DNA from: Sphingomonadaceae bacterium
GTDB taxonomy: Bacteria > Pseudomonadota > Alphaproteobacteria > Sphingomonadales > Sphingomonadaceae
DNA: 64,000 nucleotides
Assembly: GCA_020850455.1 (NCBI GenBank)
Contig: JADZEQ010000005.1
Span: forward strand, 96,873-160,872
Direction of reading: 5' to 3'
This document shows, one piece after another, positions 1-18,295 of this stretch. The notes below the pieces were generated by a model, which was not told the DNA's origin, ran no database searches, and saw nothing but the letters and a program-made list of their open reading frames with translations. Both the position numbers and the translations under genes were made by a program. How positions within the stretch are numbered: position 1 is the first letter of the stretch; each line of letters starts with the position of its first letter.

Positions 1-2827
1 CACGGGTAGCCTGAAAGCCCCCCTCCAGCCCCGAGAAATTATTGAGTCCGACGAAATTGACGTAATTGGTGCCGAGCAGCAGCAACTGCGCCATAATGGC
101 ATTATTATCCTCATTCGCCGACAAGTGGCAGTCCGAACAGCCCTTTGTCTCCGTCGTACGTACGGTGTGCGGGAAGTGCGGCGCAAAGGCTTGCGAGGAA
201 AAACCGATCGCGCTGATCGGCGGTTGCTGCACGTAGATCCTCTCTCGATTCAAATTGGTAGAGGAGAGAACTAGTGCGGAGGATGAGCGTACCGGTGCAA
301 TGATATTGCCCTTGGTGGTCTGATGGACACCGAGTTGGAACATCTCGTCGCGCGCCACCTGTGGGTTATAGGTAGCGAAGTTGCGCGTTTCCTCCCCCTC
401 AAAGCGGTGACTATTGGTGCGCCAATTTGCCTCAATCGGCAGGTGACAGCCGCCGCAGCTGGTTGTCCAGGACAGATGGCAGGTGAAGCAAGTCATTTTG
501 TCATCGCCATGCGCGCGATTTTCCGGCGCAATGCCTTCGCCCCAGCGCATCTGCCCATCTTCACCCACACGGCCCATCAGCTTGGCGCGCGCCGCGCGCG
601 CATTAAATCGGGGGTTGCCGCGGGTTACCGTGTCGCGCACCAAACTCACCTCCCAAGTCAACTGAGGGTCGGTGATGGAACGTTGGAGGAGGGTGCGGCG
701 ACCATCGCGCTCCACCCATTCAAAGCGGCGCTGACCGTCCGGGTTGCGCAGCAACGACAGGTTGGTGCCGCCCGGCGGTGCCGCTGGGCCAGAGGTTAGC
801 AGCGTGGGATAGGCATCGGCAGTGCCGTGGCAATCCTTGCATCCAATCTCAATCGCATTGGCAACTTCGCCATAGATGAAGCCGTTGCCATGACTGTCTT
901 GCGCAAAGTGGCAATCGGCGCATTGCAGCCCCTTTTCGGCGTGAATATCCATAAGGTGGACAGTGCGCCCCGGGTTGGTACCAATCGGCGTGAATTGACC
1001 TTCACCTTCGCGCCGCCAGCGCTGCGGGTCATCATGCGGGACAATATTTCCCTCCGCATCCAGCAAATTGCCTTCGCGGTCGCGGCGGAACACCGCACGG
1101 AAATTCCAGCCATGGCCGTGGTAATCCGCAAATTGTGTATCATTAAGGCCGGGGTTTAGATCATAAACATTGCGCAGAAACTGGAGGTCGGCCCACAGAC
1201 CGCGCGGGGCAGCCCCTTCAGGATTGCGATCATTTACCTGCCGGATTTCGGATGCGGTGGGGTGACGTTGCTGACGATAGGTGCGCTGATACTCCTCCTC
1301 GCTCATGCCGGCAGGGCGCGGGGTGGTGTTCTCCGGCCCGGGCCACATAGCTGGCGCGTCGGATTCATAATCCCACATGGTGTAGCCCAGATAGCTGTTC
1401 AGAAAGATATTGGGCTGGTGCATGTGGCAATTCATGCACTGTGCGGTGGGAATCGCGCGGGTAAAAGCGTGGCGAATTGGGTGCCCGCTTTCGCGTGCCT
1501 CAGGCGCTCCGGCGGGGATCAGCGCGCCATGTTCGCCACCATGTCCGCCCGATGCTTCGCCGTGCGGGGTGCGTTGCTGCAAATTGGCAATGGTGGGATC
1601 GACCGTTGCCGTTTGCCCATCGCGACCATAGCGTGCCCACACGCTCGAATGTCGGGGTTCGCGGTCATTGGCATAGATGACATGGCAACCCGAACAGCCC
1701 GATGAACGATAATCGCCCGGCTGATCATTGGTGCCCATGAACCACATATAGGGGTCGTTTAGGCGGGTTTTATGGAGGTTGAGTACAGGAATGGCCACGC
1801 GCAAGCCGGTGCCCGGCCCACGATTGGATTGGCGCAAATCGGGGCGTCCCGGTTCGTCGAGCCGTTGAATTTGGCCGGTTACATTGGGTAGGCCGATTTC
1901 GGGAAAGATCGGGTTTATGACACGACCGCCGCGTTCAAAAACACGGAAAATATCACCGGGTGGCGTCACTGTCCAATTGGGTAGCGGGTATAGTCGAGCG
2001 AGCGCGCCGCGTGCCTGTTCCTCCGGCGTCAAAATTTCATCCGCGCTCGTCGTTACTTCGCAGGCGCGGGCCCATTGGTCGGGCGGCAGGATGGAGGATG
2101 GGCTGGTTATGCACGCGGCATCGCCATCGCGCGTATATGCTTCGCCCAAAAGGTAATTTTTGAACGGAACGATGCCATTATTATAGGATGCGCCACCAAA
2201 GAACATCGCCGCGGTTGACATGAGCGAACGTTCCGCATTCTCGATGATTTCGAGGTGGCAGCTGCCGCATGCTTCGCGCGCCACGCGATAGTCGGCCGGA
2301 TTGACAAAGCGGACGAATTCGGGGGCTTCACGGTTGAGCAGAGCATAACTGCGTTGGGGGTTTGCCGACGATGGCCAATTCCAGCTTTGTGGATAACGTG
2401 GCAGGACATGCGCGCGTTCCATCGCCGCCATATTGGCGGGCGCATCATAGCCAATGGCAGGATCGCCGCGCACGCGTGCATCGCCGCCATGGCAATCGAC
2501 ACAGCCTAATTGTACCGCGGGGCTGGCATGCATGGATGTTTCATCGGTGCGCGTGTGGCAGGAAAAACAGCCCTCCGATTTTGCCATGACGGCGGCACGT
2601 TGTTCTTCGAAAGTCGTGCCGGGCTGGTTGCGAGGTGCGGGTGGTGCAGTGACATAATGTCGTTCAACCGGGCGTTCATCCCCGCTGGCGATGGCTTGCG
2701 GCGCTGCAGCAAATAAAGCGCAGGTGAGCATGATCAGCGCGGCGAGCATCACGGCAGCGCGCCCGCGCGCAAAACGCAAAATCAATTTGGTGGTCAAGGG
2801 CGCGTCGCTGGGCATCATCAAGCTCAT
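1..2827 (-). CDS. Large multihaem c-type cytochrome, N-terminal ~940 aa (3' end lies beyond the left window edge, so it is absent from the ORF track)
   Basis: My own translation of the minus strand from ATG 2827-2825 stays open to position 1. Sec-type leader KLILRFARGRAAVMLAALIMLTCALFAAAPQAIA. Ten CXXCH motifs read directly: CFSCH (nt 2555-2569), CVDCH (2489-2503), CGSCH, CSGCH, CMNCH, CADCH, CKDCH, CFTCH, CGGCH, CSDCH. The start overlaps the upstream stop (ATGA, 2825-2829). Confidence 0.8.
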   Translation of the reverse strand, partial: MSLMMPSDAPLTTKLILRFARGRAAVMLAALIMLTCALFAAAPQAIASGDERPVERHYVTAPPAPRNQPGTTFEEQRAAVMAKSEGCFSCHTRTDETSMHASPAVQLGCVDCHGGDARVRGDPAIGYDAPANMAAMERAHVLPRYPQSWNWPSSANPQRSYALLNREAPEFVRFVNPADYRVAREACGSCHLEIIENAERSLMSTAAMFFGGASYNNGIVPFKNYLLGEAYTRDGDAACITSPSSILPPDQWARACEVTTSADEILTPEEQARGALARLYPLPNWTVTPPGDIFRVFERGGRVINPIFPEIGLPNVTGQIQRLDEPGRPDLRQSNRGPGTGLRVAIPVLNLHKTRLNDPYMWFMGTNDQPGDYRSSGCSGCHVIYANDREPRHSSVWARYGRDGQTATVDPTIANLQQRTPHGEASGGHGGEHGALIPAGAPEARESGHPIRHAFTRAIPTAQCMNCHMHQPNIFLNSYLGYTMWDYESDAPAMWPGPENTTPRPAGMSEEEYQRTYRQQRHPTASEIRQVNDRNPEGAAPRGLWADLQFLRNVYDLNPGLNDTQFADYHGHGWNFRAVFRRDREGNLLDAEGNIVPHDDPQRWRREGEGQFTPIGTNPGRTVHLMDIHAEKGLQCADCHFAQDSHGNGFIYGEVANAIEIGCKDCHGTADAYPTLLTSGPAAPPGGTNLSLLRNPDGQRRFEWVERDGRRTLLQRSITDPQLTWEVSLVRDTVTRGNPRFNARAARAKLMGRVGEDGQMRWGEGIAPENRAHGDDKMTCFTCHLSWTTSCGGCHLPIEANWRTNSHRFEGEETRNFATYNPQVARDEMFQLGVHQTTKGNIIAPVRSSSALVLSSTNLNRERIYVQQPPISAIGFSSQAFAPHFPHTVRTTETKGCSDCHLSANEDNNAIMAQLLLLGTNYVNFVGLNNFSGLEGGFQATR

Positions 2828-4830
2828 CAAAAGGAAAAAATGACGTTGGCGAGAATGGAATAATAAGCATCATAACGCGGCTGATTGGTGAAAAGATCCT
2901 TGAAACCTTCACCAGGAATCAACGCCGCGGCCGACAGCCGCATGATGATATTCTGATTGGCATGGGGCCGCCAAATGGCGGATACCGACGTGTCCCAGCC
3001 AATGTCACGGCCAATATTGGTCTGATTGCGCAGCGCGCCCAAAATTGCTGTATTTTCAAACCATAGATGATTGAAATTGGTGGACAACCGTAGTTCAGGC
3101 GTCAGGTCGAAATCACCGCCAGCTCCCAGCAATATCGTGCCGGGGTTGATGAAATTGGACTGTCCCTGCTCTTTTGATGAGCGCAGACTGTTCAAAATGC
3201 CGTTACGCCCATTGATGCTGACCGCGCGTCCACCGCCGATGAAGGGGATGGACTGGCGGATCCAATAGCTTGTATCTGCGCCGGCAAATTGCGGGTTTTC
3301 AAAAATTGCATCGAAGCCGGTTTCGACATCATCATATGGGTCGCCGTCGCCTGATGCGTAAAGCCCCGAAAGGCGAAAGCGCATCCAGTTATGATCATAG
3401 CTCGCCTCAAATGCGCCAAAAACTGCGGAGATGCGGGCATTGCGATCCGTAATAGGATTAGCACGATCTTGCCCAAATGCGCCATAAATCGATGCAGTTA
3501 GATTGATGCGACCGACGCGACCGTCGGCATTATAGCCTACATAATAGACGTCATAATCATGCCCGCGCAGCGTGCCGATCAGCGATGGACGGGTAGGAAA
3601 GCCGTTATGGTCAGCCTTTTGTTCATCGCCCTCGCGATTGCGATTGTAAATCAGGCTGATCTGACTGGTTAAGCCCGGGATGGGCAAATCTTGCCGATAG
3701 AGATTGGCGATAAAAAGGAAATCGTCGCGTGGCGTCTGCCCCAGATCATTGAGGCCGCTGTTCGTATCCTTTTCTAGTCGCCAGAAGGCGGCCAGATTAT
3801 ACTGGAAACGATTGCCGTCGCGGTTGCCGAACAGGCGGATGCCCAGTTGGTTGTCATTGAACAAGAAGCCGCGAAAGTCCGACTGAAATGGTTGTATGCC
3901 GACACGGATGGAATGAAAATCATACCGACTGCCGTCATTGCCCAGATGCTTGTCGATGAATAATTCTTGCACCCCGATAAAATGGTCAAAGCGGTGCGAG
4001 GGCGCAGACGGTTGTACCGACAAGATGCGCCGTTCGGGGACATCAACAAAGGAAGCATTATAGGCGAGGGTCAGTCGATATTCGATGTCGGGCGGTTTGA
4101 AGGCCGTCATCCCCTTGGTCAGCGCAACGCCAAAAATGAGGCTCTGTGAAAAAACGACGCTTGCCGGGCGACCAAATACATCGGTGCTCTGCGGGCGTTC
4201 GGTGGTTTGCACGCCGACGGGCAGAGGAAAGGTGCGTGGTTCAACCACCGTGTCCGACGTCGCGCTGAGCGTGAAAAACCAGTCATCGCCGTGCAGCGGA
4301 ATGAAACTGGGCAGACTGTCCACATTGATCGGCCGGTCGCCCTTCAAGAAATTCTGGCGATAGGGGTCAAGGCGCGAGCGACATACATCCTGCACCGCGA
4401 CAAAGACCTGCTCCACCGGGCAAAATGCAGTGATCAGACGCCAACGGTCGGGGATGGGCAATGTATCTGTAGGAAAGGCTTGCGGCGGCAGGGCGCGGAT
4501 GGCACCGGGATTGTCCTGTGTGACCGCTTCGGGGAGGCCGGGCTGGTATCCGGGACGCCGCCGCCCCTCCAATATCTGGTCGAGCAGGCTGGGGTCAACA
4601 CGTCGTTCCCAGTTGAGCGGCGGTGGCGGTGGGGTGCCGTTTGGATCAATCGCCGGTTCCCCCGGCGTGGCTGGGGGCGGTAAATTATCTACAGGGGGTG
4701 GCGGCGCTGAACTGATGGGGGGCGGTGCTTCCGCAGCATCGGGCGGATTGCCGCCCGTGCCATCGCCCGTCACACCACCCGTCGCGCCAATCGCGGCGAC
4801 AAGCGGCAGGAGGAGGGAGGCACCAGACAT
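2827..4830 (-). CDS. Putative outer-membrane beta-barrel protein (porin / alginate-export-like), 667 aa
   Basis: ORF track. Hydrophobic leader, then a Pro-rich stretch (APPPISSAPPPPVDNLPPPATPGEP). Long G/N/D/Y/R-rich region with alternating polarity. C-terminus ...YYSILANVIFSF ends in Phe, as in OM barrels. The family guess is from memory, not a search. Confidence 0.55.
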   Translation of the reverse strand: MSGASLLLPLVAAIGATGGVTGDGTGGNPPDAAEAPPPISSAPPPPVDNLPPPATPGEPAIDPNGTPPPPPLNWERRVDPSLLDQILEGRRRPGYQPGLPEAVTQDNPGAIRALPPQAFPTDTLPIPDRWRLITAFCPVEQVFVAVQDVCRSRLDPYRQNFLKGDRPINVDSLPSFIPLHGDDWFFTLSATSDTVVEPRTFPLPVGVQTTERPQSTDVFGRPASVVFSQSLIFGVALTKGMTAFKPPDIEYRLTLAYNASFVDVPERRILSVQPSAPSHRFDHFIGVQELFIDKHLGNDGSRYDFHSIRVGIQPFQSDFRGFLFNDNQLGIRLFGNRDGNRFQYNLAAFWRLEKDTNSGLNDLGQTPRDDFLFIANLYRQDLPIPGLTSQISLIYNRNREGDEQKADHNGFPTRPSLIGTLRGHDYDVYYVGYNADGRVGRINLTASIYGAFGQDRANPITDRNARISAVFGAFEASYDHNWMRFRLSGLYASGDGDPYDDVETGFDAIFENPQFAGADTSYWIRQSIPFIGGGRAVSINGRNGILNSLRSSKEQGQSNFINPGTILLGAGGDFDLTPELRLSTNFNHLWFENTAILGALRNQTNIGRDIGWDTSVSAIWRPHANQNIIMRLSAAALIPGEGFKDLFTNQPRYDAYYSILANVIFSF

Positions 4831-4833
4831 GAA

Positions 4834-6837
4834 TTATAGCCCCTGACAGACGTTTTGTCGGTCAGTATCGAGAAAGGGCGTGAAGGGGCAGTTGATATAA
4901 ATCAGCCGCGCATTTCGCCCGCCCGCCAATTGCACGACAATCTGGTCGGCGCGTTTGTCCACCGGCGCGTTATTTGGCGCACCGCTGCCCAATCGGCCGT
5001 TGGCGTTGGCGAGGCCCAGAAAGCTGATCATATCATCCTGATCGATGCCGTCGCCCGAAACGCCCAACCCCCCAATCAACTGGTTGCCGCGATATACCGG
5101 CACCGACCCAGGGAAGATTTGCACCCCATTGGCTATGCGGTTGGTGCCGGGCAGGCTTTGTGGAACATTGGTGCAAACCTGTTTGACGTCGGTCGCATTG
5201 ACGCCCAGCACGAACAGCAGGTGCGACAAAATGTCGGGGAAAATCAGCGCTGATTGCAGGCCGGTCGACAGCGGATTGAAACCGCCCGCCGTGCGAGAAA
5301 AAGGACCATTCGGCTGCGCGACTTCGCCGTCAGGAAAAAACGGTCGATGCAAATTGCCATTGGCGCGGTCGGTAAAGGCATGGGTACCAGTGAGGGCGTT
5401 GGGGTCATTCAAAAATGTCCGAACCGCGCTGACATAAGATGCGACGGTAGGGTCAGGATCCGCCAACAACTGCGCACCAGCTGTTGCGCCGGAGAAAAAG
5501 GCCGCCGTGCGCGCCTTTTGCAAACTGACATCGATACCGAAAATCGGTGCATCGGGCGAACGGACGAGGCCGAGGGCGCGACCATTTGTATCGACAAGCG
5601 ATATGGTCACCTGCGCTTGACTGCCCAATGGCCGGCGAATCTGCGCGCGTGCGCGCGCCATGATCGTGAAGGCTTCTTCCAAAATGGTGCGCGCTTCGGC
5701 TTGGGTGATTGCGCTGACGCTGCCGCCGTCGCTGCCCGCAACTATGGGGTAGCGGTTGGCGCCCGCCCCGTTGGACAACACCATTGCGTCGCTGCGGGCA
5801 AATTCCCCCGCCTGAACCAGCCGCAAACCCGATGCTTCGGTGCCATAAGTGCTGCCTGCCAAAATGGTTGGCGTCGGGAATCCATAATATCCGCGCACCT
5901 GCACCAAATTGCCCGCACTGCCGTTGAGGCTGGCAAAGCTGGGCGCGCTGCTTGTCATCAGCCCGCCATAGCTGGCATCGCTATAGCGCAGGAGTGTGCC
6001 ATCCACGGGGATGCGTTCGGCGCGAATTTCATCTGGCGCTTCAAATCCACGCGTTCCGGCGAGTGCGGCAAATTCCTCCGCATCATTGTCAATGTCGGTG
6101 ACTTCCGGGTCAAATCCATAGTCGCCATCGGCCATTACGCCGACCCCGCCGACGAGCACGCCGCCTTTGTACAGCGGAAAGCCCCCGGCATCCGCCGACA
6201 GGCCAAGCGGGGATCGTTTGGGGCCGATCAGCGCGCCAGCCCCGACATTGCCGTCAACATAACGTGCGGCGAGGTCGGAACAGGGCAATTGGCTGAATTG
6301 CACGCCATAAAGCGGGCCGGATTCTAGCCCCGGTGTCAGCGATGACGGCGGGAAATGTTCCTGCACAATCATGCTGGCCGTGCGGCTGGAAAAGGCGTTG
6401 CCGCCGCTCGACAAATAGGCACCGGTAATCGCCTTGGCGATCGCTGCAGCCGTCGCGGGTACCGCCTGATTTTGCGCATCGCGATTATCGCCATTGGCCG
6501 CCGCGCGGACGATAGCGGTCGCGCTGGCCCCGGTCATGCGGAAAACGCCGAGTACATTGCCCGACCGGTCAACCACTGCGATGACAGATTTGATGGAACG
6601 CGCCTGCGATTCAGCAACCGCCTGGGCGATGACCCGTTCAACATCCGCCGCGCTCAGCGATTGTGCAGCGGGCAGGGTGAATGCCGCGCCGGTCGGCGTG
6701 GGGGTTGGCGTGGGTGCAGGGGCGGGCGCACCGCCGCCACCGCCGCCACCGCCGCCACCACCGCCGCCGCAGCCGGCCAGCATCAGCGCCGACGCGCTTA
6801 CCCAACCAATCGCCTGCTTCATAACCACGCCCCGCAT
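4834..6837 (-). CDS. Lipoprotein with two GlcG/DUF336-like (haem-degrading / HbpS-like) segments, 667 aa
   Basis: Lipobox LMLAGC followed by Gly13 and an (AP)3(TP)3 tether. Two segments resemble GlcG/DUF336: SAADVERVIAQAVAESQARSIKSVIAVVDRSGNVLGVFRM and EARTILEEAFTIMARARAQIRRPLGSQAQVTISLVDTNGRALGLVRSPDAPIFGIDVSLQKARTAAFF. The start may be M1 (6837, ATGA overlap) or M6 (6822). Confidence 0.6.
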   Translation of the reverse strand: MRGVVMKQAIGWVSASALMLAGCGGGGGGGGGGGGGAPAPAPTPTPTPTGAAFTLPAAQSLSAADVERVIAQAVAESQARSIKSVIAVVDRSGNVLGVFRMTGASATAIVRAAANGDNRDAQNQAVPATAAAIAKAITGAYLSSGGNAFSSRTASMIVQEHFPPSSLTPGLESGPLYGVQFSQLPCSDLAARYVDGNVGAGALIGPKRSPLGLSADAGGFPLYKGGVLVGGVGVMADGDYGFDPEVTDIDNDAEEFAALAGTRGFEAPDEIRAERIPVDGTLLRYSDASYGGLMTSSAPSFASLNGSAGNLVQVRGYYGFPTPTILAGSTYGTEASGLRLVQAGEFARSDAMVLSNGAGANRYPIVAGSDGGSVSAITQAEARTILEEAFTIMARARAQIRRPLGSQAQVTISLVDTNGRALGLVRSPDAPIFGIDVSLQKARTAAFFSGATAGAQLLADPDPTVASYVSAVRTFLNDPNALTGTHAFTDRANGNLHRPFFPDGEVAQPNGPFSRTAGGFNPLSTGLQSALIFPDILSHLLFVLGVNATDVKQVCTNVPQSLPGTNRIANGVQIFPGSVPVYRGNQLIGGLGVSGDGIDQDDMISFLGLANANGRLGSGAPNNAPVDKRADQIVVQLAGGRNARLIYINCPFTPFLDTDRQNVCQGL
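6730..6768 (-). repeat. In-frame (GGC/GGT)13 tract encoding Gly13 directly after the lipobox Cys
   Basis: Minus strand reads tgc ggc ggc ggt ggt ggc ggc ggt ggc ggc ggt ggc ggc ggt gcg. It is followed by (AP)3(TP)3. Confidence 0.9.
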
Positions 6838-8246
6838 CAGCGCACCGCCGAAATGGCGCGCACCGCGCTCGACAAAGATGTTTGGAAATCACGCGGGCGA
6901 TAGGTGTTGGGGTCACGCACCGCCGCATAAGCGCGGTTGATGTCAGCGCGGACTGCCGCCGCCGCCCCAACTGTTATTTGCCCGCCGGAAACCATTGCGT
7001 TGAGCAAGGTGTCGATGCCCATGACGGCCTGCACCGAGCCTTCATAATCGGTATAGCGCGGGCGGATCGCTTCGCCAGCAATTGCATTGGCGAGCGCGCG
7101 CGTTTCATTAGGACCAAAGCTTTGCGCGGCAAGCGCGCCGCGCACCTCCGCCGTAACGGCCAGCAATTCGCGCGCAGCGGCAGTGGCGCTTGCCCTGTTG
7201 CTGCCCATCGCGGCGTGAAAGGCACGTGCTTTTTCGTCGAACCGGCTGACGAGGGCAGGTGCTGCAACCCGCGCGGCGGCAGAAAGCATGATCATATTCT
7301 CATCATTAAAGGGGGGCATGCCCTGTGGAATGGGGCGGCCCGGGTTACGCACGGCGGTGACATTTGCGTTATCGCTATCGACGATGCGGCGATGACAACT
7401 GTGACAGTCGTAGAAATAAAATTCGGGGAACACCCCCTCTGTCCCGCGCGCGGAGGTAAAGAGCGACAGCGCCCGTTCGATCGCCATTGCCTGACCGACC
7501 GCCCACATACGCACATGGTCGGGCCGCCCCTTGCGTTCGATATAGTCGCTATCCTCATTATGGTGGGCTTGCAGCGTCGAAAATAGGTCGAGTTCAAAGG
7601 ATATGCGCGGGTGGCCCGCCGCCATGATGCGGTGGGTGACAAATTGCCCCTCGCCCTCGCTGCCGAAATGGCAGTCGAGGCAGACAGCTGCGCGCACCGC
7701 CGGGTTTTCGAGCTGTCGCATACCACGCCGGATATTGTCGGCATGCTGCTGCGCTTCGGGTAGTGTGCCTGCATAATGGCTGGAAATCCAACCACTCGCT
7801 GCACCATGGCAGGATTCACAATTAACCCCGTCGGTCAATTGATAGCGAAAGGCGCCCCCACTGGCCTCTGCCCTGCTCGAATGGCAGCCAAGACACATCG
7901 GTGCAGAGCTGGCATCACCGATACCTAGATTGCGGGCAATGGTTTGGCTGCGCGTATTGGAAAGGACAGCATAGGCACGGCTATGTGCGCCGCCAAGGCT
8001 GGAGGGTTCCTGCCATTTGGCGATTTCATCCTGCCGGACGGGGACGCCATCACCGGTCATCCGGCCATGACAGGTTGACCCAGCGCAGGATGCAACGCCA
8101 AGGCTGGGGCCGGTTTCAGCAGCGTTCGACCGAGCGCTAGGCGCTGTAACCAGCACCATGGCGAGCAAAAAAGCGGCAGCGCCGGTCATGGCGAGCCATT
8201 GCCCCGCTGATCTGCGCCATTTGTTGCCCAAACTTGCAACCTGCAT
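6837..8246 (-). CDS. Secreted pentahaem c-type cytochrome, 469 aa
   Basis: Signal-like N-terminus (WLAMTGAAAFLLAMVLVTAPSARS). Haem motifs: CAGSTCH (a CX4CH, nt 8067-8087), CLGCH, CESCH, CLDCH, CHSCH. Confidence 0.75.
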   Translation of the reverse strand: MQVASLGNKWRRSAGQWLAMTGAAAFLLAMVLVTAPSARSNAAETGPSLGVASCAGSTCHGRMTGDGVPVRQDEIAKWQEPSSLGGAHSRAYAVLSNTRSQTIARNLGIGDASSAPMCLGCHSSRAEASGGAFRYQLTDGVNCESCHGAASGWISSHYAGTLPEAQQHADNIRRGMRQLENPAVRAAVCLDCHFGSEGEGQFVTHRIMAAGHPRISFELDLFSTLQAHHNEDSDYIERKGRPDHVRMWAVGQAMAIERALSLFTSARGTEGVFPEFYFYDCHSCHRRIVDSDNANVTAVRNPGRPIPQGMPPFNDENMIMLSAAARVAAPALVSRFDEKARAFHAAMGSNRASATAAARELLAVTAEVRGALAAQSFGPNETRALANAIAGEAIRPRYTDYEGSVQAVMGIDTLLNAMVSGGQITVGAAAAVRADINRAYAAVRDPNTYRPRDFQTSLSSAVRAISAVR

Positions 8247-8289
8247 TGGCCCTTGACCCCCTCTTGGCTTAGCTGTGCCTTACCGTGGC

Positions 8290-9645
8290 CTATACCACCC
8301 CAAAGGCGAGCATCGCATCGGCCACTTTCTTGAAGCCCGCGATATTGGCGCCTTTGACATAGTCGACATGGCCGCCAGATTGCGTGCCATAGGTGACGCA
8401 GCGATCATGAATCCCCTCCATGATGTCGAGCAGCATCTGTTGCAATTCAGCCTCTTTCCAGCTGCGCCGCTCGCTGTTCTGACTCATTTCCAAGCCGGAA
8501 ACGGCAACCCCTCCCGCATTGGCGGCTTTACCGGGGGCGAAGAGGATTTTGGCGTCGCGGAAAATATGCGCGCCCTCCAAATTGGTGGGCATATTGGCCC
8601 CTTCGCTGACAGCAACACAACCATTGGCGACGAGCGTGCGGGCATCATCGCCCAGCAACTCATTTTGCGTGGCGCAGGGCAAAGCGACATCGCATTTGAC
8701 ACCCCATGGCGTTTTGCCTGCATGGAAACTGGAGCCGGGAAAGGCCGCGACATATTCCTCGATCCGCCCACGACGGTGGGTCTTATGTTCCTTTACCCAG
8801 TTGATCTTTTCCTGATTTATCCCGTCAGGATCATGAATGAAGCCGCCGCTGTCCGAAAGGGTGAGCACTTTGCCGCCCAACTGCGTCACTTTTTCGGCTG
8901 CATGGGTGGCGACATTGCCCGAACCCGAAATAACCGCGCTCTTGCCTTTGAGATCCTGACCCTTGGTCCGCAACATAGCGGCAAGGAAATAGACCGCGCC
9001 ATAACCGGTGGCTTCGGGCCGGATCAGCGAACCGCCATATTCCAGCCCCTTACCGGTTAAGACACCGTTCCAGTGATTGGTCAGGCGTTTATATTGACCG
9101 AACATGAAACCAACTTCGCGCGCGCCAACACCAATGTCGCCCGCCGGGACATCCACATCGGGGCCGATATGGCGATATAGTTCGTTCATAAAGCTTTGGC
9201 AGAAGCGCATAATCTCCCGCACACTTTTGCCCTTGGGGTTGAAATTGGAACCGCCCTTGCCACCACCCATGGGAAGGCCTGTCAGCGAATTTTTGAACGT
9301 CTGCTCAAAGGCGAGGAATTTCAGGATAGATTCATTGACGCTGGGGTGGAAGCGAATCCCACCCTTATAGGGGCCGATCGCATTGTTGTTTTGCACCCGC
9401 CAGCCGCGCTGCACGCGGATATTGCCCTTGTCATCCTCCCAACACACGCGAAAGGAAACCACGCGATCGGGTTCGGCGATGCGCCGCAAAATCTGTTCGC
9501 GGTGATAATCTTCTTTATCAGCGATGAAGTCGAAAATATCCTCCGCAACTTCGTGTACGGCTTGGATAAATTCGCTCTGTCCGGGGTTGCGCTTGGCCAC
9601 CCCCTCCATAAAGCGATTAAGATCGACATGATCTTCGATGGCCAT
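8290..9645 (-). CDS. gdhA: NADP-specific glutamate dehydrogenase
   Basis: 451 aa. GPYKGGIRFHPSVN and LTGLPMGGGKGGSNFNPKGKS (Glu/Leu/Phe/Val dehydrogenase active-site region). Full-length collinear similarity to GdhA as I remember it. Confidence 0.95.
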   Translation of the reverse strand: MAIEDHVDLNRFMEGVAKRNPGQSEFIQAVHEVAEDIFDFIADKEDYHREQILRRIAEPDRVVSFRVCWEDDKGNIRVQRGWRVQNNNAIGPYKGGIRFHPSVNESILKFLAFEQTFKNSLTGLPMGGGKGGSNFNPKGKSVREIMRFCQSFMNELYRHIGPDVDVPAGDIGVGAREVGFMFGQYKRLTNHWNGVLTGKGLEYGGSLIRPEATGYGAVYFLAAMLRTKGQDLKGKSAVISGSGNVATHAAEKVTQLGGKVLTLSDSGGFIHDPDGINQEKINWVKEHKTHRRGRIEEYVAAFPGSSFHAGKTPWGVKCDVALPCATQNELLGDDARTLVANGCVAVSEGANMPTNLEGAHIFRDAKILFAPGKAANAGGVAVSGLEMSQNSERRSWKEAELQQMLLDIMEGIHDRCVTYGTQSGGHVDYVKGANIAGFKKVADAMLAFGVV

Positions 9646-9778
9646 GCGCCTTCCCCCATATTTGCCATGGGGTCAGCCCCCCGGCTTTGGCGCGACCCCA
9701 AATGCACGGCCCCAGTCTTGATGCAGGGTGCTTCATGCAGTGGATAGTGTCTAATGGATAAATATCAGCGATAAAAGC

Positions 9779-9829
9779 CCCCCTGCGGCAAAATCCCGCG
9801 CAAAAATTGCAGCAATTTTTTGCAGGGGG
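9779..9829. promoter_or_regulatory. Nested inverted repeat in the gdhA / ccmI-like divergent intergenic region
   Basis: Outer arms CCCCCTGC (9779-9786) / GCAGGGGG (9822-9829). Inner perfect palindrome AAAAATTGC-A-GCAATTTTT (9802-9820). Confidence 0.3.
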
Positions 9830-9893
9830 ATGTGACGGGGCGCACGGTTGCGCTGGCGTGGCGACGACAAAATGCTAACAGGCGCTAGTTTAT

Positions 9894-10865
9894 GTGGGGG
9901 AAGACTGGACCATGGCGGATGATGAAGCGGCGGATATCGTGGGCCCTGCGGCAACAACGCCATCGCCGATCGCGCGCTGGGCGCTGCTGATTCTCGCGGC
10001 GCTGATGCTGGTTGGTGCGCTTGGCTTTGCCTTGTGGCGCAGCGGCTGGATGGCGGGTGACAGCGCCACCACAAGCAGCGCCCCCAGCGGTGATTTGGCA
10101 GCGCTAGAAGCGGCGACTCGCAGCAACCCGGATGACCTTAGGGCATGGCAGCAATTGGGTGACGCGCGGTTCGATGCGCGTGATTATGGCGGGGCGGTTA
10201 TCGCCTATCGTCGGGTGACAGAATTGGCCCCGGCGGTTGCAGCCAATTGGTCGGTGCTGGGTGAATCCTTGGTACTCGCATCGACGCGTGATCCCATCCC
10301 GCCCGAAGCCTTGGCCGCGTTTAACCGCGCCATCGCGCTAGATGCAAAGGACCCGCGCGCGCGCTATTTTCTGGCGGCCAAGCGGGATATTGACGGCGAC
10401 CATGCGGGGGCGATTACCGCATGGCTGGCGCTGTTGGCTGATACGCCGCAGGGCGCGCCATGGGAAACCGACGTGCGCCGCACCATCGAACAGGTGGCAG
10501 AGCGGAACAATATCGACGTCGCATCGCGCCTAGCCGCCGTACGACAACGGGCGCTGACACCCGAAGAATTGCCGGTCGCTGCGCGCGCCATCCCCGGGCC
10601 GAGCCGCCAGCAGATGCAGGACGCATCGGCGCTGCCCAAGGGACAGCAGGACATGATGATACAGGGGATGGTCGATGGTCTGGAACAAAGGCTGGTCGCC
10701 AACCCGCAGCAGGTCGATCGCTGGATCATGCTGATGCGATCGCGGATGACGCTGGGGGAGAGCCAAAAGGCGGGGGATGCGCTGCGCCGGGCGATTGCCG
10801 CGAATCCGGCGGCCGAGCAAAGGCTGCGGGCGGAGGCGCGCCTGTTACAGGTGCCGGGGGCTTAA
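9894..10865 (+). CDS. TPR protein resembling cytochrome c biogenesis factor CcmI/CycH
   Basis: Single TM helix (WALLILAALMLVGALGFALW), TPR-like repeats (DLRAWQQLGDARFDARDYGGAVIAYRRVTELAP...) and a C-terminal MMIQGMVDGLEQRLVANPQQVDRWIMLMRS typical of CycH-type proteins. Start uncertain. Confidence 0.55.
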   Translation: MGEDWTMADDEAADIVGPAATTPSPIARWALLILAALMLVGALGFALWRSGWMAGDSATTSSAPSGDLAALEAATRSNPDDLRAWQQLGDARFDARDYGGAVIAYRRVTELAPAVAANWSVLGESLVLASTRDPIPPEALAAFNRAIALDAKDPRARYFLAAKRDIDGDHAGAITAWLALLADTPQGAPWETDVRRTIEQVAERNNIDVASRLAAVRQRALTPEELPVAARAIPGPSRQQMQDASALPKGQQDMMIQGMVDGLEQRLVANPQQVDRWIMLMRSRMTLGESQKAGDALRRAIAANPAAEQRLRAEARLLQVPGA

Positions 10866-15380: not shown

Positions 15381-16511
15381 ATGGCGACACGCATCGCAGC
15401 GCTGGCTGAAAGCGCGGCCGGGGAAAATCGCGTCGCGATTAGCCCCGAAACGGTCAAGAAATATATCGCGCTGGGTGCCGAGGTTGCGGTGGAAAGCGGT
15501 GCAGGGGTGCGCGCAGGCGTTGCCGATGCCGATTATACGGCGGCGGGGGCGAGCGTTGGCAAGCGCGCCGATGTGCTGAAAGGCGCGGCCATCATCCTGT
15601 GCGTCGCACCGCCTGAGGCGAAATCGATAAAGGGTGCGGGCGAAGGGGCATGGCTGGTCGGCGCGCTCAACCCCTTTGGCGCGCGCGACACGATTGCCGA
15701 TTATGCCAAGGCCGGGCTGGAAGCGCTGGCGATGGAATGGATGCCGCGCATCACCCGCGCGCAGTCGATGGATATATTGTCGAGCCAGTCGAATCTGGCG
15801 GGTTACAAGGCGGTGTTGATGGCGGCAGACGCCTATGGCCGCGCCTTTCCCATGATGATGACGGCGGCGGGCACGATTACCGCGGCCAAGGCCTTTGTCA
15901 TGGGGGTGGGCGTTGCCGGTTTGCAGGCGATTGCCACCGCGCGGCGGCTGGGCGCGCAGGTTTCGGCAACCGATGTCCGTTCGGCGACCCGCGAACAGAT
16001 TATGTCGCTGGGTGCCAAGCCGGTTTTTGTCGAAAGCGTCGCGGGCATAGAGGGGGAGGGCGCGGGTGGTTACGCCAGCGAAATGTCCGCCGAATATCAG
16101 GCGGCGCAGGCCGAACTCGTCTCTGGCCATATTGCCAAGCAGGACATCGTCATCACCACCGCGCTGATACCGGGGCGGCCCGCGCCGCGCCTCATTTCCG
16201 ATGCGCAATTGGCAACGATGCGCGCAGGCAGCGTCATCGTCGATCTGGCGGCGGAAAGCGGCGGCAATGTCGAAGGGGTAGTGGCCGGTGAACGCGTTGT
16301 AAAACATGGCGTTACCATCATCGGCGTGAAAAATATCACCTCTTTGATGGCCGCCGACGCCTCCGCATTATTCGCGCGCAACCTGTATAATTTCCTGTCG
16401 GCTTTCTGGGACAAGGAAAAGGGTGCGCCGGTGCTCGACGATGAAATCGGCAACGCCATCCGCCTGACACAGGGCGGCAAAATTGTGCATGAACGGTTGG
16501 CAGGGGGCTGA
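15381..16511 (+). CDS. pntAA: NAD(P) transhydrogenase subunit alpha part 1
   Basis: 376 aa. Alanine dehydrogenase/PNT fold. NAD site VMGVGVAGLQAIATARRLGAQV. Followed by pntAB and pntB. Confidence 0.95.
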   Translation: MATRIAALAESAAGENRVAISPETVKKYIALGAEVAVESGAGVRAGVADADYTAAGASVGKRADVLKGAAIILCVAPPEAKSIKGAGEGAWLVGALNPFGARDTIADYAKAGLEALAMEWMPRITRAQSMDILSSQSNLAGYKAVLMAADAYGRAFPMMMTAAGTITAAKAFVMGVGVAGLQAIATARRLGAQVSATDVRSATREQIMSLGAKPVFVESVAGIEGEGAGGYASEMSAEYQAAQAELVSGHIAKQDIVITTALIPGRPAPRLISDAQLATMRAGSVIVDLAAESGGNVEGVVAGERVVKHGVTIIGVKNITSLMAADASALFARNLYNFLSAFWDKEKGAPVLDDEIGNAIRLTQGGKIVHERLAGG

Positions 16512-16514
16512 GCC

Positions 16515-16805
16515 ATGGACTTTATCTCTATCCTATCCATCTTCGTGCTGGCCTGTTTTGTCGGCTATTATGTCGTCTGGTCGGTGACGCCCGCGCTGCA
16601 CACGCCGCTGATGGCGGTCACCAACGCGATTTCGAGCGTGATTATCGTCGGCGCGCTGGTCGCCGCGACGACCGGCATGGCCAGCCATATTTCGGCGGCG
16701 CGCTGGTTGGGGCTGATTGCGGTCGTGCTCGCCAGTATCAATATTTTCGGCGGCTTTGCCGTCACCGAACGCATGCTCGCCATGTATAAGAAAAAGGATA
16801 AGTGA
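16515..16805 (+). CDS. pntAB: NAD(P) transhydrogenase subunit alpha part 2 (membrane)
   Basis: 96 aa with three hydrophobic helices and a C-terminal [10 protein letters not shown]. Confidence 0.9.
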
Positions 16806-18295
16806 CCGTGGCGAACCTTATCCTTTCGGCTGCAGGGGCACAGCATATGATGCCCCCGGCGTGGGCGCTGCTCGCTTACCTCATCGCGGGTATATTGTTT
16901 ATTTTGGCGCTGCGTGGGCTGAGCTCGCCTGCATCCTCGCGCCGGGGCAATCGCGCCGGGATGATCGGCATGTTGATCGCGGTGGCGACGACGATGCTAC
17001 TCAAGGCGCCGGTTGCGCCGGGGCAATTTTTGCCGAGCCCGACGGCGGATGATCTGGTGACGCTGGGGCAGATTGTCGCGGCGATCAGCGTCGGCGCAAT
17101 CATCGGCCTGTTTACCGCGCGGCGGATTGCGATGACCGACATGCCGCAATTGGTGGCGGCGTTCCACAGCCTCGTCGGCCTCGCCGCTGTGCTGGTGGCG
17201 GCTGCGGCCTTTCTCAGCCCCGCGGCCTTTGGCATCGTCGGCGCGGACGGGCATATTTTGCCGGTCAGCCGCGTTGAAATGGGGCTGGGCAGCGCGATTG
17301 GGGCGATTACTTTTTCAGGATCGGTCATCGCCTTTTTGAAACTGGCGGGCAAAATGTCGGGCGCGCCGATTTTGCTGCCGCTGCGCCATTTCATCAACCT
17401 TGGCACGCTCGCCGCGATATTGGGGCTGGTTGGATATTTCACGCAGGATCAGGCGCCGTGGGTGTTCTGGACCATCACCATCCTCGCCTTTGTCATCGGC
17501 TTCCTCCTCATCATCCCCATCGGCGGGGCGGACATGCCGGTCGTCGTTTCGATGCTCAACAGCTATTCGGGCTGGGCGGCGGCGGCGATGGGTTTCACGC
17601 TGCACAATAGCGCGATGATCATCACCGGGGCCTTGGTCGGCTCATCGGGTGCCATCCTCTCCTACATCATGTGCCGGGCAATGAACCGCAGCTTTATCTC
17701 GGTCATCGCGGGTGGTTTCGGTGCGGATGCAAGCGCGGGCGGCGGCGAAGCGCGCGAACAACGCCCGTGGAAGCGCGGCAGTGCGGAGGATGCGGCGTTC
17801 CTGATGCAACAGGCCGAAAGCGTCATCATCGTGCCGGGATATGGCATGGCGGTCGCGCAGGCGCAGCATGCGCTGCGCGAAATGGCGGATATGCTCAAGA
17901 AAGAGGGTGTGTCGGTCAAATATGCGATCCACCCCGTTGCGGGGCGGATGCCGGGGCATATGAATGTGCTGCTCGCCGAAGCCAACGTCCCCTATGACGA
18001 AGTGTTCGAGCTGGAGGATATCAACGCCGAATTTGCACAGGCAGACGTCGCCTTCATTATCGGGGCGAATGACGTCGTCAACCCCGCGGCAAAGACCGAC
18101 AAATCTTCCCCCATTTACGGCATGCCGGTGTTCGACGTGGACAAGGCAAAGACCGTCTTTTTCGTCAAACGCTCCATGGGCGGGGTCGGCTATGCCGGGG
18201 TTGATAATGACGTCTTTTACATGGACCAGACGATGATGCTCCTCGCCGATGCCAAGAAAATGTGTGAGGAAATCGTCAAGGCGATGGCGCATTGA
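16802..18295 (+). CDS. pntB: NAD(P) transhydrogenase subunit beta
   Basis: Multi-TM N-terminal half plus the dIII domain ([16 protein letters not shown]...[18 protein letters not shown]...[12 protein letters not shown]). Start is either GTG 16802 (GTGA overlap) or ATG 16847. Confidence 0.95.

Follow-up and report, generated by a model that had tools for sequence, protein, structure and literature searches.

A conserved module of multihaem cytochromes, a GlcG/HbpS-type lipoprotein and a predicted outer-membrane barrel in Sphingomonadaceae: a candidate porin-cytochrome variant

The window analyzed here is a stretch of 64,000 nucleotides from a Sphingopyxis-like Sphingomonadaceae bacterium (NCBI GenBank assembly GCA_020850455.1, contig JADZEQ010000005.1, positions 96,873 to 160,872). 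At one edge, four minus-strand genes encode a pentahaem cytochrome (CytA), a lipoprotein, a predicted outer-membrane (OM) β-barrel and a giant decahaem cytochrome. This module is real, conserved, widespread and so far uncharacterized; it is a candidate porin-cytochrome variant that is assembled from non-canonical parts and is found in ordinary aerobes. We lean towards the view that the four genes encode the OM arm of an undescribed trans-envelope multihaem electron-transfer system. The barrel would then be a route for electrons across the outer membrane; the alternative is a solute channel that serves a periplasmic redox system.

Gene order and conservation of the module

The genes and their junctions are arranged as follows (ORF, open reading frame; aa, amino acids; nt, nucleotides):

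6837-8246, minus strand: cytA, complete 469-aa ORF for a secreted pentahaem c-type cytochrome
6835-6839, minus strand: junction of cytA and the lipoprotein gene, TGATG with one base common to stop and start, read from the sequence
4834-6837, minus strand: lipoprotein gene, complete 667-aa ORF
4831-4833, minus strand: spacer between lipoprotein stop and barrel start, 3 nt from the ORF coordinates
2827-4830, minus strand: barrel gene, complete 667-aa ORF for a predicted outer-membrane β-barrel
2825-2829, minus strand: junction of the barrel and giant genes, TGATG with one base shared, read from the sequence
1-2827, minus strand: giant cytochrome gene, open frame that leaves the window edge, with the N-terminal 942 aa visible
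8247-8289, minus strand: spacer between gdhA and cytA, 43 nt

An initial annotation of this DNA had described four co-directional minus-strand genes, and these are present as three complete ORFs and a fourth open frame that runs off the edge. The haem motifs, LAGC lipobox, Gly13 and AP/TP linker, ...VIFSF end and 3-nt gap that it listed can all be read in the sequence. The gene overlaps that it placed at 6835-6839 and 2825-2829 are also there; however, they are not of the four-base ATGA type since each reads TGATG on the coding strand with the stop codon first. Alternative ATG codons for the giant gene are found 9 and 12 nt downstream of the start at 2825-2829, and the later Met is the start annotated in a 92-%-identical contig (L001). 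A search of the 43-nt spacer between gdhA and cytA found neither a terminator nor a promoter, and transcription reading through from gdhA into cytA is possible. The gdhA gene is outside the module. Among 80 related loci, only the Sphingopyxis-like ones and L036 have it directly before cytA.

To define the distribution of the module, one genome per species was scanned for the giant cytochrome with two patterns, which gave at least 572 confirmed stretches from 600 pattern matches. Synteny was counted in the best 80 loci (L006-L085) with tblastn of the window proteins. These loci belong to Sphingomonadales (Sphingopyxis, Sphingobium, Novosphingobium, Sphingomonas and Erythrobacteraceae), Caulobacterales, Rhodospirillaceae and Gammaproteobacteria (Haliea, Sinimarinibacterium). 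The barrel gene is directly upstream of the giant gene in 78 of the 80, and the other two end before it, with no upstream DNA. Where enough upstream DNA is available, the lipoprotein gene precedes the barrel gene in 71 of 72 loci. CytA is present in 65 loci; in Sphingomonadales and Caulobacterales its gene directly precedes the others, and in Rhodospirillaceae and Gammaproteobacteria it follows them or is a few kb distant. The exception to the triad order is the Sphingosinicellaceae metagenome-assembled contig L059 (L059:1-2935), where the barrel gene directly follows cytA and the lipoprotein gene is missing. This gap could be a true loss or an assembly artefact.

Barrel identity among the related loci is 47-75 %, and the barrel-giant pair is kept even in relatives with a barrel identity of 26-38 %. 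Two loci with distant giant relatives (L087:294-9287 and L088:8129-18843; 32-42 % identity over the matched segments) each have a barrel homologue upstream, and no lipoprotein homologue was detected in either one. The L087 barrel homologue is 898 aa long with faint fibronectin-III (fn3) Pfam matches, and downstream of the L088 pair are genes for a cytochrome b-like protein, a 726-aa multihaem cytochrome and a cNMP-binding (cyclic nucleotide-binding) protein. Judged by gene order, the four genes are a real conserved unit and not a chance grouping. The initial annotation had named three outcomes that would count against it, namely the 667-aa protein not being predicted as a barrel or not being OM-localized, the giant belonging to a characterized enzyme family with a known set of operon partners, and the four genes failing to co-occur in other genomes; all three were looked for and none was observed.

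Properties of the four proteins

The visible fragment of the giant cytochrome begins with a Sec leader (…QAIA/SG), has no lipobox and contains exactly 10 CXXCH motifs (at 87, 109, 187, 378, 464, 636, 663, 780, 791 and 897). The initial annotation of more than 940 aa with at least ten CXXCH agrees with the 942 visible residues and their ten motifs, while a further C-terminal propeller lay beyond its view. This propeller is apparent in full-length relatives of 1402 aa, from a contig 92-98 % identical to the window, and of 1442 aa, from Sphingopyxis terrae (L001 and L004). In both, ten haem sites occupy the first ~910 residues and are followed by a C-terminal LVIVD-repeat β-propeller of ~450 aa (Pfam LVIVD on the C-terminal part, E = 2e-11). 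In an alignment of 80 sequences, ten CXXCH are found in 76 of 79 giant relatives, and the haem domain has another 15 conserved His as well as several conserved Met. Since these His and Met suffice as ligands, the giant haems are probably all six-coordinate. When a catalytic metal site was sought in the propeller, one conserved Cys pair and one His were all that was found.

Among curated families, ExtM alone (NCBIfam NF040943, E = 1e-23) is truly similar to the giant cytochrome, with 83.6 bits for the fragment and 83.0 bits for the full-length protein against a cut-off of 800. A phmmer search of the PDB gave nothing below E = 0.68. The AlphaFold2 (AF2) model (pTM = 0.70) had no Foldseek match in the PDB below E = 6, a result that covers close structural kinship only, as Foldseek is weak on loop-rich haem proteins that are modeled without haems. 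Models of NrfA and octahaem tetrathionate reductase reached at most 11 bits. Thus profile and structure searches place neither the giant nor CytA in a characterized enzyme family (NrfA, octahaem tetrathionate reductase, HAO). Relatives of the giant are numerous (2682 cluster representatives at 50 % identity, E<=1e-3) and carry the public names 'hypothetical', 'LVIVD repeat-containing' and 'multiheme c-type cytochrome'.

CytA has a Sec leader, a CX4CH motif at residue 54 and CXXCH motifs at 118, 143, 189 and 281. All of the haem motifs are within residues 54-285, and the C-terminal half of ~185 aa is helical. Four CXXCH are present in 63 of 63 homologues and CX3-4CH in 61; taken site by site, all five are kept in 60-63 of the 63. 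On this conservation, the haem motifs are not a product of chance. CytA matches Pfam Cytochrome_C554 (PF13435, E = 1.4e-10, 42.4 bits against a cut-off of 20.8), and a profile built from 26 homologues identified cytochrome c554 in the PDB (1bvb, E = 1.7e-6) and weakly reached the pentahaem c552 of Thermochromatium (5ze8, E = 1.3e-3). An assignment of CytA as an equivalog of Nitrosomonas c554 was rejected (NF043010, 17.7 bits against a cut-off of 400). The score against the MtrA/DmsE family TIGR03508 was 17.3 bits with a cut-off of 192.2.

The lipoprotein starts with ...LMLAGC and Gly at the +2 position, followed by the Gly13 and AP/TP linker of ~35 aa. The rest of the protein consists of two tandem GlcG/HbpS-like halves with an insertion of ~100 aa in each. 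The HbpS-like family PF03928 (GlcG, DUF336) matches in 3 stretches (E = 4.1e-22, 79 bits against a cut-off of 25), and the two halves align with one another (E = 1e-8); therefore, the protein is a tandem duplication of a GlcG-like domain with large insertions. Matches in the PDB include EfgA/GlcG (6bws), PduO-C (5cx7), 2a2l, NahX, 4nkp, HbpS (3fpv and 4bmw) and also 9jth, of which 4nkp is an extracellular haem-binding protein from Desulfovibrio and 3fpv/4bmw are Streptomyces HbpS. EfgA, GlcG and PduO-C are matched better (6e-11 to 6e-8) than HbpS (2e-3 to 4e-3). The two GlcG/DUF336-like segments of the initial annotation are therefore supported by Pfam, PDB profile matches and the internal alignment together. 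A lipobox is present in 60 of 69 homologues, mostly with Gly at +2, and CXXCH is absent from the window protein and from all 69 homologues. The protein is an OM-type lipoprotein from a tetrapyrrole-binding fold family.

The window barrel protein has no Pfam match (E<=1) and no sequence match in the PDB. Its exact sequence has no database record, and the 92-%-identical contig P0001 was used in its place. Relatives number more than 7000 in a protein collection clustered at 90 %, and the closest named ones are almost all from Sphingopyxis. UniRef names the homologues 'Alginate export domain-containing protein'; weak matches to Alginate_exp (PF13372) were obtained for 4 of 27 homologues (best E = 5e-4) and none for the window protein. 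An AF2 model calculated from 28 sequences is of low confidence (pLDDT = 51, pTM = 0.54). Residues 1-180 form a Pro-rich extension that is modeled as mostly disordered and has the invariant motifs GRRRPG, PDRWR and DPYxQNxLKGD. Residues 184-666 contain 18 long strands with short turns that alternate with long loops. A Foldseek search of the PDB with this model gave AlgE as the top match (E = 1.2e-14, TM = 0.64 on the target); next came chitoporin, OprD/Occ porins and the Campylobacter MOMP. The C-terminus is ...VIFSF, and Y, F or W is the last residue in 74 of 74 homologues. The prediction of an OM β-barrel in the initial annotation is supported by the model, its fold matches and these aromatic ends. 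With low confidence, the model suggests an 18-strand AlgE/OprD-like fold and not an MtrB/PioB-type sheath of 26 strands. The description in the initial annotation is largely correct, and its main interpretation holds to the extent that sequence analysis can show.

One feature of the barrel is a 72-aa segment (~493-564) between strands 13 and 14 that is near-invariant across orders and is of low model confidence. Its consensus is GFDAIFENPxFAGADTSYWIRQxIPFxGGGR...NGRNGILNSLRSSKEQGQSNFxNPG. By strand parity in the model, the segment should be an extracellular loop, and it may be a pore constriction or a docking surface.

The linked inner-membrane operon and alternative functions

Clustering of all ORFs identified a second conserved four-gene operon, likewise beyond the view of the initial annotation, that adjoins the triad in at least 53 of the 80 loci (examples: L007:10343-16317, minus strand; L055:9-4517, plus strand; L078:818-5852, plus strand). 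Its products are:

Flavoprotein, ~820 aa, cytoplasmic: thioredoxin-reductase/YpdA-like FAD/NAD(P)H domain, two cNMP-binding domains and 4Fe-4S ferredoxin domains
Membrane protein, ~290 aa: weak cytochrome b561/DUF4405 similarity
Decahaem cytochrome, ~600 aa: cytoplasmic FHA domain and one transmembrane (TM) helix
Cyclic-nucleotide phosphodiesterase: SpdA/CpdA-like

In most Sphingomonadales, the operon is convergent with the module and just downstream of the giant gene. In 13 loci (L055, L062, L074 and L076-L085), it is co-directional and directly upstream, which gives a string of genes for flavoprotein, cytochrome b, decahaem, (phosphodiesterase, CytA,) lipoprotein, barrel and giant. It stands alone elsewhere in the genome in L086. 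Many Sphingomonadales have the order module, convergent inner-membrane operon, ccmI and gdhA (L020, L032, L034, L036, L042 and L048 were compared). In Sphingopyxis (window 8290-10865), cytA is directly preceded by ccmI and gdhA, and the neighborhood has lost the inner-membrane operon, an arrangement that points to a lineage-specific rearrangement or loss.

All four products of the module carry export signals, three being Sec-type leaders and one a lipobox. In the electron-transfer model that we favor, the giant decahaem-propeller protein would dock on the barrel, with which it forms the most persistent core, and the tethered lipoprotein would be a third partner in the complex. With haems that are probably all six-coordinate, the giant would be a wire rather than a catalytic haem enzyme, and its propeller a binding or docking surface. 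CytA would act as a soluble periplasmic shuttle from the outer complex to the FHA-decahaem of the inner-membrane module, or to general respiratory cytochromes in lineages without that module. From its predicted domains, the inner-membrane module can putatively connect cytoplasmic NAD(P)H to periplasmic haems. Where it is present, the simplest putative direction of flow would be from NAD(P)H to Fe-S, haem b, decahaem, CytA, the OM complex and an external or periplasmic acceptor, with cyclic nucleotide as the gate. An extended form of the model, which we regard as unlikely, is that many common aerobic heterotrophs (Sphingomonadales, Caulobacterales and marine Gamma- and Alphaproteobacteria) may contain a complete cyclic-nucleotide-gated conduit that leads from NAD(P)H to the cell surface over Fe-S, a b-type protein and 25 c-type haems. 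Its outer unit would be new, with an AlgE-like 18-strand barrel, a decahaem-propeller cytochrome and a haem-b-binding GlcG-type lipoprotein in the electron path.

Several points weigh against the electron-transfer model. The module is known from gene sequences and predictions, and the barrel model is of low confidence at a pLDDT of 51. The near-invariant 72-aa loop is rich in Arg, Ser, Asn and Gly, and together with the modeled 18-strand barrel it resembles a channel specific for a solute (OprD/AlgE logic) more than a passive cytochrome sheath. The giant is not a lipoprotein and its surface exposure is only postulated. The lipoprotein sequence lacks a haem c site, and haem b binding would be a family-level possibility. 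Furthermore, no inner-membrane operon was found in the 64-kb window or within 10 kb at any Sphingopyxis locus. No Sphingopyxis-named entry appears among the best 120 homologues in either of two lists, which include neighboring genera and in which part of the entries are named. This suggests that Sphingopyxis retains only the outer module; therefore, the full chain may not exist in the window organism.

The main alternative, possible though we doubt it, is a periplasmic redox system with its own OM solute channel, in which the giant and the lipoprotein are periplasmic and no electrons cross the outer membrane. An OprD/AlgE-like pore, perhaps anion-specific, would admit or release a soluble compound that the giant and lipoprotein reduce or oxidize, and CytA would provide the link to the respiratory chain. 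The best fold matches of the barrel are specific channels (AlgE, OccD/OccK and chitoporin), and the near-invariant loop is extracellular by strand parity. Invariant Arg and Asp residues are numerous. Comparable loops constrict the pore in members of the Occ family. The barrel is also as conserved as the enzymes (47-75 % identity), which would be unusual for a mere sheath, and the giant has a plain Sec leader with no lipobox. Its only family relative, ExtM, comes from the Geobacter ext cluster, whose porin ExtI is required for the reduction of selenite and tellurite. Against this alternative, no candidate for a catalytic site was found: His and Met are sufficient for six-coordinate haems, and the propeller offers one Cys pair and one His. 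Pfam refers to LVIVD-repeat proteins as cell-surface proteins (via the Tenderiales Uet paper). The 15 haems in the two outer cytochromes, or 25 with the inner decahaem, are many for a reductase of a soluble substrate, and a membrane complex would account just as well for the long Gly/Pro/Thr tether and for the barrel-giant pairing.

A device for handling or sensing haem or iron is very unlikely. Here haem would be bound or degraded by the lipoprotein, import of haem or iron would be the task of the barrel, and the cytochromes would be a ferric or haem reductase or a redox-stress sensor. Haem binding or degradation has been reported for Streptomyces HbpS, and the lipoprotein profile does match the extracellular haem-binding HbpS (3fpv, 4bmw) and 4nkp. 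In the linked module, the FHA, cNMP-binding and phosphodiesterase parts are regulatory in flavor. Yet the lipoprotein is closer to EfgA, GlcG and PduO-C than to HbpS, distant relatives keep the barrel and giant and not the lipoprotein, and no TonB-dependent receptor, ABC importer or haem oxygenase was found in the conserved neighborhood. An apparatus of 10 plus 5 haems is also oversized for sensing.

The initial annotation had further considered horizontal acquisition, on the basis of an estimated G+C content of 52-53 % for 1-4.8 kb. The measured value is 57.9 % in 1-4800, and only kilobase 3001-4000, within the barrel gene, falls to 51.7 %. That the module is a recently acquired genomic island, inserted downstream of gdhA, is hardly credible. 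Its G+C is slightly low (59.4 % in 1-8246 and 62.4 % in the remaining window), as is GC3 (0.61-0.67 in the four genes and 0.66-0.78 in 14 other window ORFs), and the inner-membrane partner module is missing from the Sphingopyxis neighborhood. However, the housekeeping gene gdhA is still lower in G+C (55.4 %) and has a GC3 of 0.64. A 92-%-identical metagenome contig, S. terrae (62-68 % identity) and four further Sphingopyxis loci all share the order ccmI-gdhA-cytA-lipoprotein-barrel-giant, the module order extends to the wider Sphingomonadales, and identity to other genera declines in step with taxonomy. A non-exhaustive search of the ORF lists revealed no integrase, tRNA or repeat boundary. 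On synteny and the recomputed G+C, the suggestion of horizontal acquisition was dropped.

The surrounding DNA is otherwise housekeeping in nature near the module (ccmI/cycH, an FAD monooxygenase, pntAB and others). Next to gdhA is a TPR gene of CcmI/CycH type (9894-10865, plus strand) for cytochrome c maturation, and a ccmI homologue is also within a few kb of the module in many related loci. This nearness to a haem-rich operon may be functional or simply syntenic. The genes pntA and pntB (15381-18295, plus strand), ~7 kb away from the module, encode the subunits of a proton-translocating NAD(P) transhydrogenase. They are ordinary housekeeping genes that are mentioned since the partner module in relatives uses NAD(P)H. 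The plus strand opposite the four genes contains many long ORFs, for example 5254-6327 (357 aa) and 6882-7586 (234 aa). In relatives, an ORF cluster of ~412 aa is opposite the flavoprotein gene (e.g. L008:14992-17226); as a real gene it was rejected in favor of a spurious antisense ORF. The antisense ORFs look like by-products of high G+C rather than genes.

Most OM multihaem conduits known so far come from specialists that reduce metals or oxidize iron. The module described here is found in ordinary aerobes of soil, freshwater and the sea, with hundreds of genomes that carry it, and its parts are outside known conduit families. Most lineages link it to an inner module that is NAD(P)H-linked and cyclic-nucleotide-regulated, and to which two preprints have only recently drawn attention. 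Should electrons reach or leave the outside of these cells, redox exchange with minerals, humic matter, metals or reactive oxygen species would be a far more general trait than currently supposed, and the module would represent a new structural solution for crossing the outer membrane. Since several of the hosts are culturable (Sphingobium, Novosphingobium, Sphingopyxis), direct testing is feasible. Many sphingomonads are amenable to genetics.

Comparison with known systems

Literature searches found no paper that describes the four-gene module, in keeping with the initial annotation, which did not recognize it. Like MtrCAB, MtoAB and PioAB, it encodes a barrel, a decahaem cytochrome and a lipoprotein together, tied to a point at the inner membrane through periplasmic cytochromes. 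The components differ in each case. The MtrB/PioB barrel has 26 strands, whereas the barrel here is modeled with ~18, has no match to PF11854 and has AlgE/Occ porins as its best folds. The MtrA/DmsE decahaem is ~330 aa in length; the giant is 1400 aa with a propeller and scores 14.3 bits against the TIGR03508 cut-off of 192.2 (E = 0.02). MtrC is a decahaem lipoprotein (OmcA/MtrC family TIGR03507), whereas the lipoprotein here is GlcG/HbpS-like and without a haem c site. Judged from these sequence comparisons, the module would function like a porin-cytochrome system and is not MtrCAB or PioAB by barrel family, decahaem or lipoprotein.

The individual parts may also be compared with proteins of other function. 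The substrate-specific channels AlgE and OprD/Occ, with 18 strands, are the best structural matches of the barrel model. Unlike AlgE, the barrel gene has no alginate biosynthesis genes nearby, and 78 related loci show cytochromes and the lipoprotein as its neighbors. Unlike either AlgE or OprD, the barrel has an extra N-terminal extension of 180 aa and invariably comes with a multihaem cytochrome. Each half of the lipoprotein falls into the fold family of GlcG, HbpS, PduO-C and EfgA (PF03928), of which several known members bind haem, corrinoids or small ligands. Known members are oligomeric single-domain proteins of ~140-190 aa, in contrast to the lipidated 667-aa tandem fusion that is encoded here in a cytochrome operon.

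Two preprints independently noted an inner-membrane-type module or a sibling cluster, and both call its function unknown. The first describes ptdABCDEFG, a putative porin-cytochrome operon of marine bacteria with a function unknown to its authors, which encodes a pentahaem cytochrome, a porin, an FAD oxidoreductase, a tetrahaem cytochrome, a cNMP/4Fe-4S protein, a TM protein and a decahaem cytochrome (bioRxiv 10.1101/2023.11.21.568154). The pentahaem PtdA is related to the T. tepidum c552 5ZE8, which CytA reaches weakly (1.3e-3), and is likewise paired with a porin. Compared by description only, the inner-membrane part of ptd resembles the partner module in relatives; by the same description, ptd differs in having the tetrahaem PtdD and neither a GlcG-type lipoprotein nor a giant decahaem-LVIVD protein. 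The second describes the 'NHC' cluster of Ferrigenium straubiae, composed of an FHA-domain nonahaem cytochrome, a 5-TM protein and a 4Fe-4S protein (bioRxiv 10.64898/2026.01.22.701106). It resembles the partner operon in its cytoplasmic FHA domain, one TM helix, periplasmic multihaem domain and neighboring membrane and Fe-S proteins. It has nine haems and not ten, and the likeness concerns only the partner operon, which is absent from the window. The neighborhood as described in the preprint mentions no set of barrel, lipoprotein and giant cytochrome. An AlgE-like barrel is described in neither of the two preprints. Two other clusters were considered and set aside. The Uet cluster of Tenderiales, where the LVIVD protein is separate and the cytochrome is an undecahaem, is another system, and the Methylobacter porin-cytochrome cluster is an ordinary MtrAB-type cluster and unrelated.

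The nearest described analogue is the extHIJKL-MNOPQS cluster of Geobacter. The hosts of the present module are aerobic Alpha- and Gammaproteobacteria, unlike those of ext, and the giant is not an ExtM equivalog. ExtM is a 12-haem Geobacter cytochrome with no assigned role, to which the giant is a distant relative at a tenth of the cut-off. The lipoprotein, barrel and CytA have no match to the Ext models that are present in NCBIfam; accordingly, the barrel matches no Ext porin model. ExtH is a rhodanese-type lipoprotein whereas the one here is of GlcG/HbpS type, and the selenocysteine-containing pentahaem ExtKL has no counterpart. The inner module of ext is the Rieske/cytochrome b pair ExtOP, and relatives of the window module have instead a flavoprotein with Fe-S and cNMP-binding domains, a cytochrome b-like protein and an FHA-decahaem. 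In G. sulfurreducens, the ext cluster includes the porin-like ExtI and has been tied to selenite/tellurite reduction (PMC5877670). The plan of the two systems is nevertheless alike, in that each combines genes for a non-haem lipoprotein, a small OM barrel and multihaem cytochromes with those for a membrane module of cytochrome-b/Fe-S type.

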